Shown here in pieces: positions 55,748 through 63,632 of a stretch of 64,000 nucleotides of DNA (its first letter is position 1; every line of letters starts with the position of its first letter). The position numbers were made by a program, and so were the translations under genes. The notes under the pieces were generated by a model, which saw only the letters and a program-made list of their open reading frames with translations, ran no database searches and was not told where the DNA came from. The DNA comes from Vulcanimicrobiota bacterium. Lineage in GTDB: Bacteria > Vulcanimicrobiota > Vulcanimicrobiia > Vulcanimicrobiales > Vulcanimicrobiaceae. Location of the stretch: NCBI GenBank assembly GCA_963714015.1, contig OY970223.1, forward strand, positions 3,168,001-3,232,000, in the 5' to 3' direction.

Positions 55748-56755
55748 ATGCGTCCTTTTCGGCTTCTTGGGGCTCTCGGTGCCCTCGTCGCTCTCTCAGC
55801 CGTCATTGCCTGCGGAGGCGGCGGCGGCACGTCGACACCTCCTGTCGGAGCTCCCTCGTCTAACCCGGGGGGGAGCCCCGGACCGGGCGGAAGCTCCAGT
55901 CCGCCCTCGTCCGGCTCGCCTTCGCCGACCTCCACACCGCGCGATACTCCGGTGCCGACGCGAACACCGATCTCGACGGCGACCCCAAGTCCCGTACCGA
56001 CCAGCACGGCGCCCCCTACACCCTATCCCTCGCCCTCGGGCACGCCCAACCCAACTCTCACCGTGACCACCGGTCATGGCGAAATCAATGGGACGGACGA
56101 TCAATTCACCGGCGGTATCGGTAAGGAAATCGGCGACGGCGACTATCCGGACGGCGGTCAAGGACCGGTCAACACCACATTCGGACCGGACAACGTGCCG
56201 TGTCTGGCGCAGATGTACGACGGACCGGTTCCACCCGGTTACCACGTTCACGCGTTCTTGGGCATCTATTACAACGGCACCGAAATTGCGATGCCGGACG
56301 GCGTCGGCATTGCCGACCCGGAAGGCGACATCACGTATCAGGGCATTCCGAATTGGACGCAGTACTCGTACGATCCCAATAACCCCGGAAAATCCGGCTG
56401 CTTCTATCAAATTCACACGCACGATCCGAGCGGTACGATTCACATTGAATCGTCGAATCCCAACAGCGTTCCGTTGACCGGCACGATATACACGCTGGGA
56501 GACGTGCTCGCGCTGTGGGGTATTCCGATTTCTTCCACGCAGTTTGGACCGTTCAGCGGCCAGATTCAAGTCTTCACCTCCGGCCAAATCCCCCGTTTCA
56601 AGCAAGGGGAGGTCGGATCCAACACGTACACGCTGTACAACGGCGACATGAGAAACATCGCGCTGTACACGCACGAAGTAATCTGGGTTCTGATTGGCAC
56701 GGGCAACCCGACGTACGCAGCGCTTCCCAACGTCGGTTTCTGGGATGAGTACTGA
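55748..56755 (+). CDS. Lipoprotein with Pro/Thr linker and His-motif domain
   Basis: Lipobox VIAC, PT-rich linker, YHVHAFL, CFYQIHTHD..GTIHIE. Confidence 0.75.
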   Translation: MRPFRLLGALGALVALSAVIACGGGGGTSTPPVGAPSSNPGGSPGPGGSSSPPSSGSPSPTSTPRDTPVPTRTPISTATPSPVPTSTAPPTPYPSPSGTPNPTLTVTTGHGEINGTDDQFTGGIGKEIGDGDYPDGGQGPVNTTFGPDNVPCLAQMYDGPVPPGYHVHAFLGIYYNGTEIAMPDGVGIADPEGDITYQGIPNWTQYSYDPNNPGKSGCFYQIHTHDPSGTIHIESSNPNSVPLTGTIYTLGDVLALWGIPISSTQFGPFSGQIQVFTSGQIPRFKQGEVGSNTYTLYNGDMRNIALYTHEVIWVLIGTGNPTYAALPNVGFWDEY

Positions 56756-56776: not shown

Positions 56777-56809
56777 AAAGGTTCGCTCGAAAGAGCGGGC
56801 CTTTTCTTT
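56777..56809 (+). terminator. Intrinsic terminator
   Basis: AAGGTTCGCTC-GAAA-GAGCGGGCCTT-TTCTTT. Confidence 0.75.
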
Positions 56810-56826
56810 AACGAATACTGGAGAGG

Positions 56827-57373
56827 ATGAGACGAGCGCTCCCGCTGTGGATCGCCGCGGTGGTGCCGGCAACATTGGCTGGGCACAGCCTGGCGTATGC
56901 GCTCAACCGCCAGTCCGCTTCGGGCTCGCAGCACATGTGGATGCAACCCACGTGGGAGGCGTCGCTTTCGGTGTTGTCGGCAATCTGCGCTGTCTGCATC
57001 GGCGGCGCGCTGATTCGGGCCGGAATTCTGAGGCACAGCGCCGTGGAAGGGCGTTTCAATCTGCTGTGGCCCCGAATGGCCTTCGCCCAGGTCGTGCTTT
57101 TCGCACTAGCGGAGCATGCAGAAGGTGCGCGAGTCGGGCTATCCGCTCTCGCCGTACAAGTGCTCGTCGCCGCTTTCGCCGCCGCGCTCGTTGCTTTGTT
57201 CGCGCGTCTGCTGCGGCGCTGCATCGATGCGGCCGAAGAAGCGAGCCGGTATCTGGAACGCTTGCTGAAGTTCGGCTCTACCTTTGTGCCGCGCCGCCGC
57301 GTGCGGCCTTCATTCGCTTTGGAGATAAGCGCGGGAACCGCGCGCTTTCAACGACCGCCTCCGTCCGAATCAG
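56827..57373 (+). CDS. Multi-TM leader protein ending RFQRPPP (putative arrest peptide); stop probably obscured by a 1-nt insertion at 57371
   Basis: GGAGAGG SD; about 4 hydrophobic helices with His (GHSLAY, QHMW, AEHAE); basic linker then RPPP; resembles 60611-61120. Confidence 0.6.
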
Positions 57374-57414
57374 CTCGTTTCCGCCTTTTAGTCATCACCC
57401 AAGCTATTCGGAGG
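57361..57414 (+). promoter_or_regulatory. Stem sequestering the SD of the cytochrome-porin gene
   Basis: TCCGAAT(C)AGCT (57364-57375) pairs with AGCTATTCGGA (57402-57412), overlapping the GGAGG SD before GTG 57421. Confidence 0.65.
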
Positions 57415-57420
57415 TTTTCC

Positions 57421-59193
57421 GTGTATCGCATGACGACAATGTTCGCGCGCGTGTTCGCAGGCGCAGCCCTTACCGTGATGCTGTGTACTGCGCGCGCATA
57501 CGCCGTGCCCGTCTTTGCAAACGGTCAGGGAATATCGTGTGAGACCTGCCACACGACCTTTCCCGGCATGACGCGCTACGGAATGATGGTCATGATGACG
57601 AATTTTCAGATATTGAACCGCCATCTCCAGGATCAGGCGCTTCCGATTTCGGCGCGCATATACATTCAGTCGCTTCTGGCAAACAAAGACCACCCGGGCA
57701 ATACCATGGTTTCCGATCTGTCGCTCCTGGGCGGCGGCTTTTTGGGACGCAACTTCACCTGGTACACGGAGCAGCACGTCATCGATTCCGGGGTTATCGG
57801 TCAGACGGAGCAGGTTTGGCTTTCGTGGAACGGCCTGCTGCACGGAACCAATTCGATCCAGGTCGGAAAGTTTCACACGCCGTTCCCATTCATGCCGGCG
57901 CACGCGTGGACGATCAGCCCGTATCTGCTTGCAGCGCAAACGACCGGCCAGAATGATTTCAATCCGAATGACGCGCGGTGGGGCGTTGCGTTCAACGGAA
58001 TGTCCAACGAGTTCATGTACAATCTCTCGTGGCTCACCGGAAGCGGATCGACCGGCGACGCGCTGGACTACAACCAAACGCGCAATCCACGAACAATCGA
58101 CGCAAACGTCTCCTACGGCGGCATGTCCATCCCCTGGAGCGTAGGGCTGGTCGGGATACGCGGCTGGGCGCCGCTAAGCGATACCGCAACCGGAGATTTT
58201 CTGGGCACCGATCCGTTCAGTCGCGAAGGCGTGTACTTCGGCTATCAGACCAACGCATGGCACTATCAAAGCATGTATTACCATGGATTCGACGCCAATC
58301 CGGACGTGGGCCTCGCCGACGTTCCGATGAACGGGTTTTTCTTCGAAGCCGAACGAGATTTGGGGTGGCAAAACCACATTCTGCTGCGCTATGACGTCGC
58401 ATCGAGCGATACGCTGAATCGCCAAATCGTCTTCGATCTCTCGCACAACGTGTTGCCGAACCTCGCGCTGATAGGCGAACTCGCGGGTTATCCCAACGCG
58501 CGTCCGCAGATTGCGTTTCAAATCGCATACGCAGGACCGTACCAATTCGGAAAGCGGTATCTCTCCAATCTGCACGTCGCGCCGGTGGGCGGAGAAGGCA
58601 CTTCAAACAGCGCCTCGGCAACAGCCGCACCCGCCGCAAGTTCAGCGCCCGCGGCGGAGAACTCCGCAGCACCGGGCAATGCGTCCGCCGGGGCCGCCTT
58701 GGTTCAGGCCAACGGCTGCGAAGGCTGCCATGGCGCGGCACTGAAGGGCGGCGGTGTTGGTCCGGCGCTCTACGGCGTCGAGCACAAACTTACGGCGGAT
58801 CAGATCGCGAACGCCATTCGGAACCCGAAAGCGCCGATGCCGAACTTCGGTTTCAGTCAGGCGCAGATCGCCGATCTGGTCGCGTATCTTTCGAATCTCG
58901 ACGGCGGTCAGACCGGACAGCAACCAGTAGTCACGTTCAATCCGGCGAAGCCGACGGATATCGCCACGATCTCAATTCGCTTCCCGGGAACTCCGCCGAA
59001 GTCGGTTCGCGTTCTGCCGATCATGCAGATGGGAAAAAGCACGATGCAGACGCGCGAGATAACGCTTCAGCCGTCATCGGGCGATCCGAACGTATTCACG
59101 GGACAAATCGTCTTTTCGATGGGCGGCCCGTGGACGGTGCACGTCGAGTACGACGGCAACACGATGGACGTTCCGTTGAACGTGGGACAGTGA
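57421..59193 (+). CDS. Cyc2-like cytochrome-porin fusion with an extra cytochrome c and a YtkA/FixH-like C-terminal domain
   Basis: Signal peptide ..ARAYA, 'VPVFANGQGISCETCHTTFPGMTRYG', aromatic beta-strand region, Ala/Pro linker, CEGCH...MPNF, C-terminal 'MQMG...FSMGGPWTVHV'. Confidence 0.65.
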   Translation: MYRMTTMFARVFAGAALTVMLCTARAYAVPVFANGQGISCETCHTTFPGMTRYGMMVMMTNFQILNRHLQDQALPISARIYIQSLLANKDHPGNTMVSDLSLLGGGFLGRNFTWYTEQHVIDSGVIGQTEQVWLSWNGLLHGTNSIQVGKFHTPFPFMPAHAWTISPYLLAAQTTGQNDFNPNDARWGVAFNGMSNEFMYNLSWLTGSGSTGDALDYNQTRNPRTIDANVSYGGMSIPWSVGLVGIRGWAPLSDTATGDFLGTDPFSREGVYFGYQTNAWHYQSMYYHGFDANPDVGLADVPMNGFFFEAERDLGWQNHILLRYDVASSDTLNRQIVFDLSHNVLPNLALIGELAGYPNARPQIAFQIAYAGPYQFGKRYLSNLHVAPVGGEGTSNSASATAAPAASSAPAAENSAAPGNASAGAALVQANGCEGCHGAALKGGGVGPALYGVEHKLTADQIANAIRNPKAPMPNFGFSQAQIADLVAYLSNLDGGQTGQQPVVTFNPAKPTDIATISIRFPGTPPKSVRVLPIMQMGKSTMQTREITLQPSSGDPNVFTGQIVFSMGGPWTVHVEYDGNTMDVPLNVGQ

Positions 59194-60614
59194 TGCGCCG
59201 ATCCGCCTTTTTGCGGATCGGTACGGGGACGATGGTTGCCGCGGCTCTTCCATCGATGTCGCGCCGCGCACTGGCGGCGGACGTTGTCGACTACAAGCTC
59301 ACCGCGTCGCCTCTGGCATTTGCGCCTGCGCCGAACATGCAGTTTCCGGGGCTGGCGTTCAATGGAACGATTCCAGGCCCCCTACTGCGCATCGTGCATG
59401 GTCAGCGCCTGCGGGCGCTCTTCATAAACAACTGCGGACAGCCGGCGACGATCCATTGGCACGGTATGATTCTTCCGAACAATATGGACGGCGTCGAAGG
59501 CGTGACGCAGGCCGCAGTTCCCGATCGGGAGACGTTTCTTTACGAATTCACGCCCGGTCCGCCCGGAACGCGCTGGTATCACGACCACGTCAGCGACGGA
59601 GTCGCCCGGGGGTTGTTCGGGCTGATCGTCGTCGAAGATCCAAAAGACGAGCCGGCCGACGCCGAATTCGCACTGGTCTTTCACGACGTGCCGAGGCTTG
59701 CCACGATTCAAGCGGCCATGATGGGCGTGAGCGCTGCACCAATGGTGGACCCCATCGGATCCCCCGAAATGACGTCGATGCAGCCCAACGACAAGATGGG
59801 CGACGAAGTGGCATACAGCGCGCACTGCATCAACGGGCAGACATATCCGAATACGCAAAAGCTTGCCGTAAAAGTCGGCCAGCGCGTGCGTCTGAGAATA
59901 TTGAACGCAAATCCGACGCAGACGCGCTATGTTCGGCTCGCCGGACATTCACTGACCGTGACGCACTGCGACGGCAACCTGATGGATCAGCCGGTTACGG
60001 TAGACGCGCTGCGCGTCGGAGTTGCAGAACGGTACGACGCGTGGTTTACCGTCACGGAACCGGGTGCGTGGCTGTTGCAAGGACTCTCCAGCGAGCCGCT
60101 CGCCTATCAGCAGGCGGCTGTCGTGCACACTCCGGGAATGGAAAACGCCCCTCCGCTTTCTTCGCCTGAGACACTCGAGGGCGTCCGGTATTTCACGTAC
60201 GAGATCGCCGGGGCCGCGCTCGGTCCGGGCACCGGTGACATGCTAGCGGCACATTCATTCGTTCTGGGCGGCGGCAAGTATGCCAGCAACAAGTGGACCA
60301 TAAACGGAAAGACCTACCCGAACACACCGAAAATTTACGTTCATCGCGGCGACCGGGTCACCGTGCACTTCAAAAACACTACCGATATGGACCATCCCAT
60401 GCATCTGCACGGTCACGTTTTTCGTTTAACCAGCGTAGATGGTAAGAGGCTGACCCGCCCGCTGCCCAAAGACACCTCGCTGGTCCGTTCCAACGGCGGA
60501 ACGGCGGAATGGGAGTTCGTGGCGGATTCACCCAAGGGACGTTGGCTGTTGCATTGCCATAACGAGATTCATATGATGGACGGGATGATGACGGAGGTAG
60601 TCTACCGCTCGTGA
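59193..60614 (+). CDS. Multicopper oxidase with Tat signal
   Basis: MRRSAFL Tat motif, IHWHG, WYHDH, HPMHLHGH, HCHNEIHMMDGM. Confidence 0.93.
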   Translation: MRRSAFLRIGTGTMVAAALPSMSRRALAADVVDYKLTASPLAFAPAPNMQFPGLAFNGTIPGPLLRIVHGQRLRALFINNCGQPATIHWHGMILPNNMDGVEGVTQAAVPDRETFLYEFTPGPPGTRWYHDHVSDGVARGLFGLIVVEDPKDEPADAEFALVFHDVPRLATIQAAMMGVSAAPMVDPIGSPEMTSMQPNDKMGDEVAYSAHCINGQTYPNTQKLAVKVGQRVRLRILNANPTQTRYVRLAGHSLTVTHCDGNLMDQPVTVDALRVGVAERYDAWFTVTEPGAWLLQGLSSEPLAYQQAAVVHTPGMENAPPLSSPETLEGVRYFTYEIAGAALGPGTGDMLAAHSFVLGGGKYASNKWTINGKTYPNTPKIYVHRGDRVTVHFKNTTDMDHPMHLHGHVFRLTSVDGKRLTRPLPKDTSLVRSNGGTAEWEFVADSPKGRWLLHCHNEIHMMDGMMTEVVYRS

Positions 60615-61120
60615 GGAGCCGCCTCGGCCGGAAAATCTGGACCGCAGCGCTGCTGGGATTGCCCGCAGCGTTGTTTGCGCACGTCATCGTATTCGGCGGC
60701 GAGCATACGCTCGGCGGCTCCGCACATTCGTGGCTGCTCGAGTTCGGCGGGGTCTTCGCATTCCTCGGCACGCTCGTTGCGGCGATCGGCGCCGTGCGAC
60801 GGTCGACGGCAGTCGTCCCGAAATTCGCGCCGATTCTCACAGGCGCCGCAGGCTGGTTCGGCATTATCGAGCTCTGCGAGAGCGCGCACGGTATCCCCAT
60901 TGCGGCGGTCATCGCTGCTCTCGTCTTCGCCGCGTGGATCGTCCGCGCCGTGCTTTCGGCATTCGCGCACACCGTCGCCGCTATCGCGGCAATTCTTCAA
61001 CTATACCTTAGAGCCGCCAAGCCTCCGGCACCGGCTCTAATAAAACGGGCCGTGCCGCGCGCGCATTCATGCGTGCACCGGCTGCGCTTGTTCTCTCGGC
61101 CGCCGCCTCTCTTCGCTTAA
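60611..61120 (+). CDS. Multi-TM His-containing leader protein ending LFSRPPPLFA (putative arrest peptide)
   Basis: GTGA overlap with the MCO stop; about 4 TM helices with FAHV, GEH, SAH, SAHG; basic linker then RPPP three residues before the stop. Confidence 0.7.
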   Translation: MRSRLGRKIWTAALLGLPAALFAHVIVFGGEHTLGGSAHSWLLEFGGVFAFLGTLVAAIGAVRRSTAVVPKFAPILTGAAGWFGIIELCESAHGIPIAAVIAALVFAAWIVRAVLSAFAHTVAAIAAILQLYLRAAKPPAPALIKRAVPRAHSCVHRLRLFSRPPPLFA

Positions 61121-61192
61121 ACGCCGCGTCCACTGGGACGCCCGCGCGCAAGCTCTTGCGCGTTTCTTTCACATACAACTGCGTTTAAGGAA
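61112..61192 (+). promoter_or_regulatory. Multi-branched structure sequestering the TBDR SD
   Basis: CTTAAACGC (61116-61124) is the exact reverse complement of GCGTTTAAG (61181-61189, overlapping the AAGGA SD); inner hairpins GCGTCC/GGACGC and CGCGCAA/TTGCGCG plus TTTCTTTC. Confidence 0.65.
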
Positions 61193-61199
61193 AAATTTC

Positions 61200-63632
61200 A
61201 TGTCTAGAATTCTCGCGGCGCTGCTTGCCGCGTTTATCACAATCACGGCGCTGCCGGCGATGGCGGATACGATCGGTATCGTTCGCGGAACGGTCGAAGT
61301 CAACGGCAAGCCGGCGGCCGGCGTTAAAGTCACGCTCAGCGGCGAAGGCACCGTCGACCAGCGCAAGACCGACGAGGGCGGTACTTATATTTTCTCCGGC
61401 GTACAGTTCGGCAGCTATACGCTCACAGCCGACTATCCGGGCGTCGCGCCCCGTACGGTTCAACTGTCGGTTTCCTCCGATCAAGTTCTCACCGTCAACA
61501 TGGCGCTCGGCGAGCTCAAAACGATCGGAAGCGCAACCGTTACGGCTCACGCAGGCGTGAGCGGCACACCGGTCTCGGTAAACGACGTCACCAAGCAGCA
61601 GATCGCCGCTCTCCCCATCAACAACAGCCTGAATCAGCTCGTTCAGACTGTGCCCGGCGTCGTACGGTTCTCCTATAACGAGCCGGTCGCGCACGGGTTC
61701 CATGGCGTGACGTACGAAATGGACGGCGCGCCGATGCCGCTTGCGACCAGTTCGAACTTCGCCGAGATCATCGATCCCAAGAACATCGACTCTTTGGAAA
61801 TCTTCACCGGCGCGATTCCCGCCGAGTACGGCGGAAACCGCGAAGGTGCGGTCGTGAATATCATCAGCAACCGCGCGAGCGATCTGACGGCACCTTACGA
61901 GGGTTACTTCACGACCGGCGGCGGGAGCTTTGGTCAGGTGGTGAACAGCTTCGACAACGCATTCAAAACTGGCAAGACCGAGATCTTCCTGAACGCGAAC
62001 ACGCAGGTGGGCAGTCGCGGCCTGGACACGCCGACTGTCACCCCGATTCATGACGAGAACTCGCAGTCGGACGAGTTTCTGCGAACGATTACCACGTTCA
62101 ACGATCGGCAGTCGCTGGCGTTCGACGTCTCCAATCAGCTGGCGCAGTTCCAGATCCCGATGAACACGAACCCCAACGATCCGACCGACCCGCAATTCAA
62201 CGTTCCGGCTACGGACGACGTTCAGCGCGAATACGACCGCTATGCGAGTCTGAATTTCACGAGCTCGTCGAAAGACGGGAACGGCATCTTCCAGCTCATT
62301 CCTTGGGTCCGCTCCACACGCATTGCCTACGACGGCGACTTACAGAACGACGTTCTGGGCTTGACTAATCTGGGACCGTGCTCCGGTCAGAGCCCGGCGC
62401 CGTCGTTCTGCACGAGCGCCAATCCCGATGCTCCGGTTTACCAAAGCGCGATCGGGCTCAAGCAGGACCGCAAAGCCAACTACGTCGGCCTTCGCGTGTC
62501 GGACTTCCGGGCCACTTCGCACCACGCGTTCAAGGTTGGATTGGACGCGAACCGTGAAATCCTGACCGCGGACGAAACGTTCGCGTGCTACGACCCCACT
62601 TGCAATACGGTGGTACCCGGGTACCCCTTACCGCCGGCGGCTTCGTTCACGACGAACACCACGAACCAGGATCAGGCCGGGACGCAAGTGGGTCTCTATG
62701 CGCAAGACAAGTGGACGCCCTCGCAGCAGTTGTCCGTGGACTACGGACTTCGCTACGATCGCTCGACCGGTTACGTCGGCGGCGATCAATTGAGCCCACG
62801 CATCGGCGTAAACTATGCTCCCGACAGCACGAACGTCATCCATGCGTACTACGGCCGCTTCTACGCCGCACCGCAGCTCGAGGACGTCCGTCAAGCGTGC
62901 GTCGTTCTGCAAGGCTGCTCGGGAACCCCGACGTATGACCTCAAGCCGGAGACCGACTCGTATGCGGAGATCGGATTGTCGCACACGTTCTCACCGAGGC
63001 TGAGCGTCTACGTCAACCAGTGGGAACGCTACGTGAGCAACGTTTTGGATACCACGCAGCTCCTGAATACACCGCTGTTCGCCGTGTACAACAACGCGAT
63101 CGGCCGCGCGCGCGGAACCGAGGTCAGGATGCAGGCCAAGCTCCATAAGGCGGACACGTGGTTCATTTCGGGAACGTGGTCCAATTCGCTCGCGGCCGGC
63201 ATCTCGGGATCGACGTTCCTCTTCCCGCCCTCGCAGCAGACTGTTCCAGGGGTTCCGCTGATCGACCAGCTCTCGCCGGAAGATCACAGCGAAGCAGTCG
63301 CGGTGAATTCCGCCTACACGCATCGCTTCGGTTTGAATGAGGCGTATTACGCAACGATCGAGGGCGAGTACGGAACGGGGTTCCCCGTGAGCTTCGAGGG
63401 TCTCGTAAACGGCCAGCCCGTCGGATTCAGCGGCACGCTCCCGACGCACTTGACCGCAGACCTGGCTCTTGGGCGCGATCCGGGCCGCAACGGCGATCGC
63501 TCATTGGGCTACGATCTAAGCATCCAGAACCTGTTCAACGATCGGTACATCATCAAAATCGCCAACGGGTTCAACACGACGCAGTACTCGCAAGGGTTCA
63601 ACGCGCTCTTCCGCGTGACCGCGCCGCTGTAG
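61200..63632 (+). CDS. TonB-dependent receptor with N-terminal carboxypeptidase-regulatory-like domain
   Basis: Signal peptide ..PAMA, plug 'IDSLEIFTGAIPAEYG..GAVVNI', YAQDKW, GLRYD, LSPRIG, LKPE, QNLFN. Confidence 0.9.
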   Translation: MSRILAALLAAFITITALPAMADTIGIVRGTVEVNGKPAAGVKVTLSGEGTVDQRKTDEGGTYIFSGVQFGSYTLTADYPGVAPRTVQLSVSSDQVLTVNMALGELKTIGSATVTAHAGVSGTPVSVNDVTKQQIAALPINNSLNQLVQTVPGVVRFSYNEPVAHGFHGVTYEMDGAPMPLATSSNFAEIIDPKNIDSLEIFTGAIPAEYGGNREGAVVNIISNRASDLTAPYEGYFTTGGGSFGQVVNSFDNAFKTGKTEIFLNANTQVGSRGLDTPTVTPIHDENSQSDEFLRTITTFNDRQSLAFDVSNQLAQFQIPMNTNPNDPTDPQFNVPATDDVQREYDRYASLNFTSSSKDGNGIFQLIPWVRSTRIAYDGDLQNDVLGLTNLGPCSGQSPAPSFCTSANPDAPVYQSAIGLKQDRKANYVGLRVSDFRATSHHAFKVGLDANREILTADETFACYDPTCNTVVPGYPLPPAASFTTNTTNQDQAGTQVGLYAQDKWTPSQQLSVDYGLRYDRSTGYVGGDQLSPRIGVNYAPDSTNVIHAYYGRFYAAPQLEDVRQACVVLQGCSGTPTYDLKPETDSYAEIGLSHTFSPRLSVYVNQWERYVSNVLDTTQLLNTPLFAVYNNAIGRARGTEVRMQAKLHKADTWFISGTWSNSLAAGISGSTFLFPPSQQTVPGVPLIDQLSPEDHSEAVAVNSAYTHRFGLNEAYYATIEGEYGTGFPVSFEGLVNGQPVGFSGTLPTHLTADLALGRDPGRNGDRSLGYDLSIQNLFNDRYIIKIANGFNTTQYSQGFNALFRVTAPL

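Follow-up and report, generated by a model that had tools for sequence, protein, structure and literature searches.

A window of 64,000 nucleotides from an uncultured Vulcanimicrobiota soil bacterium (contig OY970223.1; the window is the whole stretch of DNA analyzed here) carries on its forward strand, at positions 57421–59193, a gene for a fused protein of 590 amino acids. According to the open reading frame (ORF), Pfam matches and an AlphaFold2 (AF2) model, this protein combines a Cyc2-like haem-porin with a cytochrome c and an immunoglobulin (Ig)-like domain bearing Met motifs. The ORF starts with a GTG at 57421, six bases downstream of a GGAGG sequence (57410–57414), and ends with a stop codon at 59191–59193. 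The following gene encodes a multicopper oxidase (MCO), whose ATG at 59193 has one base in common with this stop (cagTGATGcgc), and the TGATG overlap claimed in the preliminary description is thereby borne out. On sequence grounds, the 590-residue protein is best placed within the Cyc2 superfamily as a diverged branch from Eremiobacterota, Cyc2-like and distinct from canonical Cyc2.

The protein begins with a signal peptide (residues 1–28, positions 57421–57504), recognized by reading the sequence, which ends in AYA (residues 26–28) and for which AF2 predicts a helix at residues 2–22. Past this cleavage-type site the mature sequence is VPVFANGQGISCETCHTTFPGMTRYG. A haem-binding N-terminal segment followed by a Met cluster (57505–57615), delineated by homologue alignment and motif comparison, precedes a 16-strand outer-membrane β-barrel (residues 76–372, 57646–58536), which was assigned from the AF2 strands and Foldseek. 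An Ala/Ser/Pro-rich flexible linker (residues 373–416, 58537–58668) connects the barrel to a class-I cytochrome c domain (58669–58899), identified by PF13442, PF00034 and conservation, and the chain closes with an Ig-like β-sandwich (58918–59190), which by AF2, Pfam and Foldseek is YtkA-like or CrdA-like and probably metal-binding. No Pfam or NCBIfam family is recognized in residues 1–410. Sequence and AF2 agree in every part with the layout proposed earlier, namely a haem motif, a β-strand region, a linker, a cytochrome c and a C-terminal domain.

The N-terminal haem segment reads AVPVFANGQGIS-CETCH-TTF-PGM and is followed by the Met cluster TRYGMMVMM. The CxxCH motif of the barrel (57538–57552) comprises residues 40–44, and the residues Ala28, Pro30, Ala33, Asn34, Gly35, Gln36, Gly37, Ser39, Cys40, Cys43, His44, Pro48, Tyr53, Gly54, Met55, Met58 and Met59 are invariant across 44 aligned homologues. 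The arrangement is similar to that described for Cyc2 (Cyc2 of A. ferrooxidans, Cyc2PV-1 of Mariprofundus, Cyc2TAG1 of Ghiorsea and Cyt572 of Leptospirillum; PMC8406198), with a signal peptide, an early CxxCH and an A-x-P-x-F-A sequence. The spacing of three residues to the Cys, the Pro four residues past the His and the 16-strand barrel are also the same. Of the features by which Cyc2 is recognized, the protein thus possesses the signal peptide with a CXXCH near the N-terminus, to which the fused domain adds a second CXXCH at residues 433–437, and a 16-strand porin of at least 365 residues fused to the haem, with a core of ~400 residues as in Cyc2. It differs from Cyc2 in its NGQ and PGM sequences, in YGMMVMM after the haem, in the C-terminal fusion of a cytochrome c and an Ig-like domain and in an unusually conserved barrel, and its partner is an MCO, while the partners of Cyc2 are rusticyanin, Cyc1 and aa3. 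The published diagnostic consensus of Cyc2 is AXPXFAR[Q/K][T/Y] before CXXCH, with PXL four residues after it (Keffer et al. 2021, PMC8406198), and sequences without PXFAR[Q/K][T/Y] were dropped from the reference tree described there.

A search with the N-terminal domain returned 194 proteins. The 120 matches listed are 54–87% identical, and the named ones among them are 'cytochrome c' of Baltobacteraceae, Vulcanimicrobiaceae, Tyrphobacter and Rubrimentiphilum (Eremiobacterota). A profile of the same domain, compared with 1.84 billion representatives, gave 350 matches at E ≤ 1e-3 and 75 at E ≤ 1e-10. The haem contexts of these matches grade from AIPVFANGQGVSC through AMPPFAQAYGxxC and AIPVFAHRYGLSC to AIPAFAR[Q/K]YxxSCxxCH..P.LN.FG, and the last form is the published Cyc2 consensus of Keffer et al. 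An hhalign comparison of the N-domain alignment with a group carrying the canonical motif gave a probability of 97.8% and an E of 8.5e-13 over 160 columns, which cover the haem segment and the first strands. The profile of the N-terminal domain therefore reaches proteins with the published Cyc2 motif, contrary to the outcome named beforehand as a refutation, that the porin would be unrelated to Cyc2. In a quick IQ-TREE search with 66 N-domains, where midpoint rooting served for drawing only, a branch with a Shimodaira–Hasegawa-like approximate likelihood ratio test (SH-aLRT) value of 100 sets the 47 Eremiobacterota-type sequences apart from the 19 outside sequences. When an alignment of four canonical-motif sequences was used as the query, 568 loci were matched, and the best 80 came exclusively from metagenome-assembled genomes (MAGs) of the FCB group and Gemmatimonadota, with no known iron oxidizers among them.

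The AF2 model, calculated on an alignment of 44 sequences, has a mean pLDDT value (predicted score of the local distance difference test) of 71 and a predicted template modelling (pTM) score of 0.54. It contains 16 strands between residues 76 and 372, a low-confidence linker at 374–416 with pLDDT below 50, a helical cytochrome c at 421–491 and a β-sandwich at 503–588. The top Foldseek matches of the barrel are 16-strand general porins, OmpU (6ehc, E 5.7e-11, template modelling (TM) score by target 0.63) and Omp32 (2fgq, 0.64), and the matches to OmpU, Omp32, PorB and OmpF span E values of 6e-11 to 1e-8 and TM scores by target of 0.57–0.67. The middle region is thus predicted to be a β-barrel, as had been claimed, and the failure of that prediction, which would have spoken against the claim, did not occur. 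The barrel is strongly conserved, with a mean column identity of 58% among the 44 full-length homologues. No Pfam match to the CopB/PcoB family is present in residues 1–410 at E ≤ 0.1.

The cytochrome c domain is matched by PF13442 (Cytochrome_CBB3, E 2.8e-13) and PF00034 (E 1.4e-8) at residues ~420–493, and it contains the second haem motif, CEGCH, at 58717–58731. Met473 of a PMP sequence is likely the axial ligand of the class-I cytochrome c; Cys433, Cys436, His437 and Met473 are kept in at least 90% of the 44 homologues. In the β-sandwich that follows, MxMG, FxMxGP and a Tyr are invariant, and the Trp of GPW is present in at least 90% of the sequences. When folded alone by AF2 on 40 homologues, the module of cytochrome and sandwich has a pLDDT of 92 and a pTM of 0.80, and this confident model suggests that the two domains are held in a fixed mutual arrangement.

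The Pfam family YtkA (PF13115) matches residues 529–575 at E 0.011, with 16.8–19.2 bits against a cut-off of 25.9, and 32 of 40 homologous modules at E ≤ 0.05, all weakly, the best at 1.1e-4. Foldseek assigns a generic Ig-like fold to the C-terminal domain, with matches to PD-1, CTLA-4 and arrestin-like folds. The only copper-related match of the sandwich is CrdA, a copper-resistance protein of H. pylori and relative of CopC/PcoC (PMC9182242), at Foldseek rank 34 with E 2e-3 and TM 0.46 and with a profile E of 0.54, which is below significance. In that alignment the FsMgGPW strand pairs with LSMNGTW and the MQMG loop with the Met-rich loop of CrdA. Of the YtkA/FixH-like domain with MQMG and MGGPW described earlier, a conserved Ig sandwich with Met motifs is therefore retained, while the YtkA score lies under the Pfam threshold. 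The sandwich is similar to YtkA-like domains (PF13115), the FixH C-terminal domain and CrdA (9ll2) in being small and Ig-like, and its SM-G-W strand and Met-bearing loop align with those of CrdA; it differs in being packed on a cytochrome c (pTM 0.80), an arrangement absent among the PDB matches, and the matches to YtkA and CrdA are below significance.

The MCO (59193–60614, 473 amino acids) is a three-domain enzyme with a twin-arginine translocation (Tat) signal and a Met-rich insert, as assigned from Pfam and an alignment of its ligands. The leader contains the twin-arginine sequence RRSAFL, and the Pfam families Cu-oxidase_3 (E 7.5e-38), Cu-oxidase (5.8e-22) and Cu-oxidase_2 (3.3e-33) are all matched above cut-off. 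The copper ligands HWH, HDH, HPMHLHGH and HCHNEIHMM, which characterize a three-domain MCO, are invariant in 26 sequences, as are Met184, Met196 and Met202 of the insert. The nearest solved structures are 6vow/6vox (E 8e-40), the Thermus MCO and, more distantly, CueO. The best NCBIfam model, copper_res_A (TIGR01480), gives 194 bits against a cut-off of 479.

Related loci number 53, of which 52 are labelled Eremiobacterota/Vulcanimicrobiota or unclassified bacterium and one Dormibacterota. The barrel, cytochrome and sandwich lie in one frame in 41 of them; five run off a contig end, three are frame-broken and four are split. The MCO gene lies directly 3' of the barrel locus in all 47 loci that reach far enough (six of the 53 are too short), and it mostly starts between –6 and +12 nt relative to the upstream stop. 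In the split loci (L026, L037, L040 and L043) the cytochrome–Ig module has a gene of its own, placed between those for the barrel and the MCO, and the barrel gene terminates at the linker position, past the barrel. In L026 and L043 the split module has 202–214 amino acids and its own signal peptide, which shows that it is periplasmic and a separable partner of the barrel.

More distant relatives of the barrel carry other domains at the same C-terminal position: one cytochrome c (P0146, P0155, P0192 and P0140), two cytochromes (P0124 and P0131) or a cupredoxin (P0138). This variety indicates that the barrel C-terminus serves generally as a site to which periplasmic electron carriers are joined. 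A cluster look-up of ten distant matches gave as sole informative name the 'cupredoxin domain-containing protein' of Baltobacteraceae. The P0138 cluster (L159) comprises a Baltobacteraceae Cyc2-like barrel with a C-terminal cupredoxin (513 amino acids), which one source labels 'cytochrome c oxidase subunit 2'. Another protein, P0202 (1035 amino acids), joins a methyl-accepting chemotaxis signalling domain (405–586) to a Cyc2-like haem-porin part (669–851) and is either a fusion or a gene-calling artefact.

Among 401 sampled genomes of the phylum, 214 have a Cyc2-like match at E ≤ 1e-20 and 50 have an orthologue (best E ≤ 1e-130), tallies which include the unpublished genomes G178 (orthologue) and G237, G128, G328, G245 and G359 (any match). 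Three further groups are distinguished by their haem segments. A class-level sister group, with AIPMFAKRTGASC...FPGMTxYGMMVMM, contains two cytochrome c domains and Met-rich linkers and has a smaller MCO directly downstream in three of three cases. A second paralogue group, with ANGQGG...PxLNxYGRYVL, carries other cytochromes and in some members MGS/GMP Met repeats, and a third, with AMPPFAQAYG, is mostly free of a fused domain; no MCO is found within ~4–5 kb in any of the 11 loci of the second group or the 20 of the third, both of which are Eremiobacterota Cyc2-like groups. The two MCO-linked sets are joined in the tree with an SH-aLRT of 92. The MCO linkage is strict and confined to the lineage with the Met cluster at the barrel haem, and the two features together mark one lineage. 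In the paralogous Eremiobacterota Cyc2-like ORFs of L137, L145, L139, L142 and L146 the last 200 residues contain a different cytochrome domain, which is cut by Met-rich low-complexity repeats (MGSMGSMGS..., GMPGMAGMPGM), and no MCO is nearby.

The bacterium itself possesses a second Cyc2-like gene (G000:C1:3150489-3151531, reverse strand; L055/L056), ~17 kb before the window, with the haem context AIPLFAQRYRLSCETCH, which is nearer to the canonical motif. This gene is broken up over three frames; it is preceded by a cupredoxin-like ORF and followed by an OmpR-type response regulator and a histidine kinase.

The first gene of the cluster, up198 (56827–57372), recognized by its homologues, encodes a small multi-pass membrane protein and has no stop codon in the window, where the frame is open from an ATG at 56827 to 59193, with up198 as its first 180 residues. 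A single protein of 788 amino acids starting at this ATG was considered and rejected, as the upstream part is in the same open frame in none of the 53 loci. Homologues of up198 lie directly upstream of the barrel gene in 31 of the 53 and end in ..RF(Q/K)RPPPxxx followed by a stop. A short-read soil-metagenome contig of 252 nt (depth 4.7), otherwise identical, lacks one base at 57371, which gives GAA-TAG and ends up198 at ...RPPPSE; the read check covered five short contigs of one DNA run and 13 of 30 bins, and the indication, which is short of proof, comes from one contig of low depth that may stem from the same sample. The junction at 57369–57372 is probably a one-base assembly insertion or a strain variant. 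Pfam and NCBIfam give only sub-threshold matches for up198 (FtsX, MerT, TadE), and the ESM Atlas gives clusters without names and structural rows with TM below 0.5.

The gene for mem169 (60611–61120), a 169-residue membrane protein identified by alignment as a paralogue of up198, follows the MCO, its GTG overlapping the MCO stop. The two proteins have in common His20, Glu96 and Glu99 as invariant residues, with Glu in a predicted helix, and the RFxRPPP tail, and from these residues they may be a metal-binding membrane pair; neither fits a known family. According to tblastn, mem169 adjoins the cluster in 15 of the 53 loci, after the MCO in 11 and 5' of the barrel gene in four. The consensus scan found two terminator-like hairpins, one with a T-run after a lipoprotein gene (56785–56810, GCTCGAAAGAGCGGGC then CTTTTCTTTA) and one after mem169 (61144–61173), which are the likely 5' boundary of the operon and 3' boundary of the four-gene unit. 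A promoter-like site is present at 61168–61196, downstream of the mem169 hairpin.

A TonB-dependent receptor with an N-terminal CarboxypepD_reg domain (61200–63632, Pfam) is a frequent but inconstant neighbor, adjoining the cluster in 19 of the 53 loci by tblastn. Its PDB relatives are uninformative as to the substrate, the best match being the colicin I receptor at E 8e-6. On the other side, a lipoprotein-like ORF of 335 amino acids (55748–56755, forward strand) has a Pro/Ser/Thr-rich N-terminal region and HxH-type motifs and is matched by neither Pfam nor NCBIfam; roughly a dozen of the 53 loci have a tblastn match to it just 5' of the cluster. The flanks of 17 loci (149 ORFs) contain housekeeping genes, with the TonB receptor in five. 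Metal-related genes occur there sporadically: L008 has two SCO1/SenC genes, L019 Fur together with a peroxidase-family gene, L032 an iron permease and L048 Nramp. Genes for copper regulators, P-type ATPases and Cus proteins were not found in these flanks.

The best reading of the locus, held at somewhat less than probable, is that a metal ion would be oxidized at the barrel haem and its electrons passed via the tethered cytochrome to the O2-reducing MCO. The haem segment would sit in or at the 16-strand outer-membrane barrel. The C-terminus of such barrels is on the periplasmic side. A dissolved reduced metal ion would enter the barrel and be oxidized at its haem, as in Cyc2, and an electron would then hop to the class-I cytochrome c at the end of a tether of ~40 residues. 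The cytochrome/Ig module, with its tightly packed Ig-like domain bearing a three-Met motif, would dock on the co-translated, Tat-exported MCO, whose type-1 copper would take four electrons, O2 being reduced to water in the periplasm. Both up198 and mem169 belong to the porin–MCO unit. The whole would be a self-contained outer-membrane-to-periplasm metal oxidase, which may serve in detoxification, in O2 or proton consumption or in redox balancing, and not necessarily in energy conservation. As for the substrate, homology would favor Fe(II), while the Met clusters of the barrel haem, the sandwich or linker and the MCO would favor Cu(I). The alternatives proposed in the preliminary description, a conduit, copper handling or Fe/Mn oxidation, are inseparable by sequence.

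Cyc2 is described as handing its electrons to the copper protein rusticyanin in Acidithiobacillus (PMC10654088). An MCO has been proposed as an electron carrier in the Fox pathway of Metallosphaera (PMC13741234), and Fe(II) oxidation by a porin with a periplasmic MCO was hypothesized by He et al. 2017 (PMC5566968). The porin–MCO of He et al. and the Metallosphaera fox Mco are similar to the present cluster in placing an MCO in extracellular-to-periplasm metal oxidation, but these proposals, both themselves hypotheses, include neither a haem-porin nor a tethered cytochrome. More tentative than the best reading is a specific form of it, in which the cluster would be a metal-to-oxygen short circuit bypassing the inner membrane, made of the haem-porin, which would take electrons from external Fe(II) or Cu(I), the cytochrome with a copper-bridging Met site and the MCO as terminal oxidase; this form is doubtful.

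Several points weigh against metal oxidation at the barrel haem with the MCO as electron acceptor. The Cyc2 motif AXPXFAR[Q/K][T/Y] is replaced by AVPVFANGQ, in which Ala, Pro, Phe, Ala and the spacing are retained and an NGQ invariant in the 44 homologues stands in place of R[Q/K][T/Y]; PXL is replaced by PGM, with the Pro in the correct position and Met for Leu. The Keffer filter would therefore have discarded the 590-residue protein, and it is treated here as Cyc2-like. Of the Cyc2-like haem motif claimed earlier, AxPxFA, the spacing, the Pro and the kinship by profile hold, while R[Q/K][T/Y] and PXL do not. This kinship was measured against proteins recognized as Cyc2-type by their motif. 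In the AF2 model the haem segment (25–65) has a pLDDT below 50 and the position of the haem is not placed. The Met-rich elements at three sites fit copper better than iron. MCO adjacency amounts to about one evolutionary event, and the contrast of 50 against none is not one of 50 independent observations; the search pattern that yielded the 47 orthologous loci moreover included the Met cluster. No terminal oxidase, bc1, respiratory or carbon-fixation genes were found in the flanks of the 17 loci, and no RNA runs with the sequence were found. Reduction of O2 by a periplasmic MCO conserves no energy, and the selective benefit is therefore speculative.

The docking of the module on the MCO was also examined by complex prediction. 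Residues 31–473 of the MCO with the cytochrome/Ig module scored 0.59 (runs 0.59, 0.61 and 0.55), and the best of three controls scored 0.00; the runs agree in at least 89% of contacts and the partners have a pLDDT of at least 80. The mark used was reached by 116 of 157 solved complexes and two of 215 mismatched pairs, and 18 of the 157 and both mismatches lie at 0.60 or below. The complex is accordingly graded as weak support, a grade which errs more often than not unless a strong prior backs it, and this also counts against the proposed electron path.

The main competitor is copper handling or resistance of the PcoA/PcoB/PcoC (CopABC) type, which is possible but held with clear reservation. 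The barrel would be a Cu channel and the Ig domain a Cu(I) chaperone to a cuprous-oxidase MCO, and the haems would be accessory, for example oxidizing channel-bound Cu(I) so that Cu(II) exits. The cluster is similar to PcoABC in having a gene for an outer-membrane barrel and a Tat-dependent MCO with a Met-rich region, together with a small β-sandwich with Met motifs; the barrel beside the MCO resembles the pcoAB order as described in PMC5566968. Invariant methionines at three sites (Met55/Met58/Met59, MxMG with FxMxGPW, and Met184/Met196/Met202 of the MCO) are in line with copper, as is the sister group, which swaps the Ig domain for Met-rich linkers such as MSGMNMSGMNMKGMQMSM and retains the MCO. 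The sole non-cytochrome sequence match of the module in the PDB is CrdA, a weak one (profile E 0.54), and the top NCBIfam model of the MCO is copper_res_A. Unlike PcoABC, the cluster has a haem barrel outside the PcoB/CopB family, of the 16-strand Cyc2/porin type and without a Pfam CopB/PcoB match at E ≤ 0.1, an inserted cytochrome c and no genes of the pcoRS, pcoD or pcoE type, and its MCO is under the copper_res_A cut-off (194 bits versus 479). Two conserved covalent haems have no role in known Pco/Cop systems, and the similarities to CrdA and YtkA are below significance. Copper regulators, P-type ATPases and Cus genes are, as noted, missing from the flanks of the 17 loci, and the Met-rich repeats are present also in paralogues without an MCO.

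Classical Cyc2-dependent Fe(II) lithotrophy, in which the fused cytochrome would replace soluble Cyc1 on the way to an inner-membrane oxidase and the MCO would be accessory, for example as a ferroxidase safety valve, is unlikely. It is suggested by the homology to the Cyc2 superfamily and by the fusion of a cytochrome c, which is the expected look of a Cyc2-to-Cyc1 relay. Baltobacteraceae MAGs from Cu/Ni tailings were called iron oxidizers by FeGenie (PMC13594681), and an Eremiobacterota MAG from acid mine drainage has a BLAST-level match to Cyc2 (PMC8357290), but the passages concerned do not name the protein that gave the FeGenie or BLAST call. The outer-membrane tether of ~40 residues restricts the reach of the cytochrome, oxidase, bc1 and carbon-fixation genes do not lie beside the cluster in the 17 loci, and an orthologue is present in just 50 of the 401 sampled genomes. 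Nor would this reading account for the Met motifs or for an MCO that is strictly linked and translationally coupled.

Reductive copper acquisition is more improbable still. Electrons would here flow outward, the barrel haem would reduce Cu(II), and Cu(I) would move inward via the methionines to the Ig domain as a chaperone, which would supply the metal to the MCO or to other cuproenzymes; the two membrane proteins and the TonB receptor would be extra parts of the uptake route. YtkA-type domains are tied to copper delivery in Bacillus. The position of the Met cluster immediately beside the haem would agree with such a role, as would the TonB receptor beside the cluster in 19 of the 53 loci and the two SCO1/SenC genes downstream in L008, but adjacency of SCO1 is found in only one of the 17 loci. 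A haem-porin cupric reductase is without precedent, an import route devoted to a single MCO seems out of proportion, and the direction of electron flow is unreadable from sequence.

In the least probable proposal the MCO would oxidize Mn(II) in the manner of MCO-type manganese oxidases, and the cytochromes would be accessory electron carriers. The classical Mn oxidases of bacteria are MCOs, but this MCO is small (473 amino acids), closest to metallo-oxidases of the Thermus/CueO type and not to the large MnxG/MofA, its Met-rich insert is a trait of cuprous oxidases, and no Mn-related genes were seen in the flanks of the 17 loci. A role of Cyc2 itself in oxidizing Mn(II) has been proposed for 'Ca. 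Manganitrophaceae' (PMC9040806).

The literature searched, which does not extend to most subscription journals, yielded no account of the fused architecture or its coupling to an MCO. Cyc2-like genes of Eremiobacterota have so far been reported only as BLAST or FeGenie calls, and the passages concerned do not state whether the same gene is meant (PMC8357290, PMC13594681). Cyc2 is the main metagenome marker for iron oxidizers, and knowledge of its periplasmic partners is confined to a few Proteobacteria. In the present case one gene encodes partners along with the porin, in the form of a cytochrome c and a probable copper site, and together with the coupled MCO they offer an electron path open to direct testing. 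The small size of the four-gene unit makes it suitable for heterologous expression.

Eremiobacterota are abundant in peat, tundra and mine tailings. If the electron path from the haem-porin ends at the MCO, Cyc2-like matches in this phylum do not imply an energy gain by lithotrophy, and calls of the FeGenie style would have to be reinterpreted. With Cu(I) as the substrate, the system would be a haem-dependent copper detoxification of an undescribed kind. Should the short-circuit form be true, the cluster would consume protons, O2 and toxic metal in the periplasm of bacteria living in acid peat and soil rich in metals, and a single phylum would contain Cyc2-type porins rewired to several different acceptors in the periplasm, namely cytochrome c, cupredoxin and MCO.

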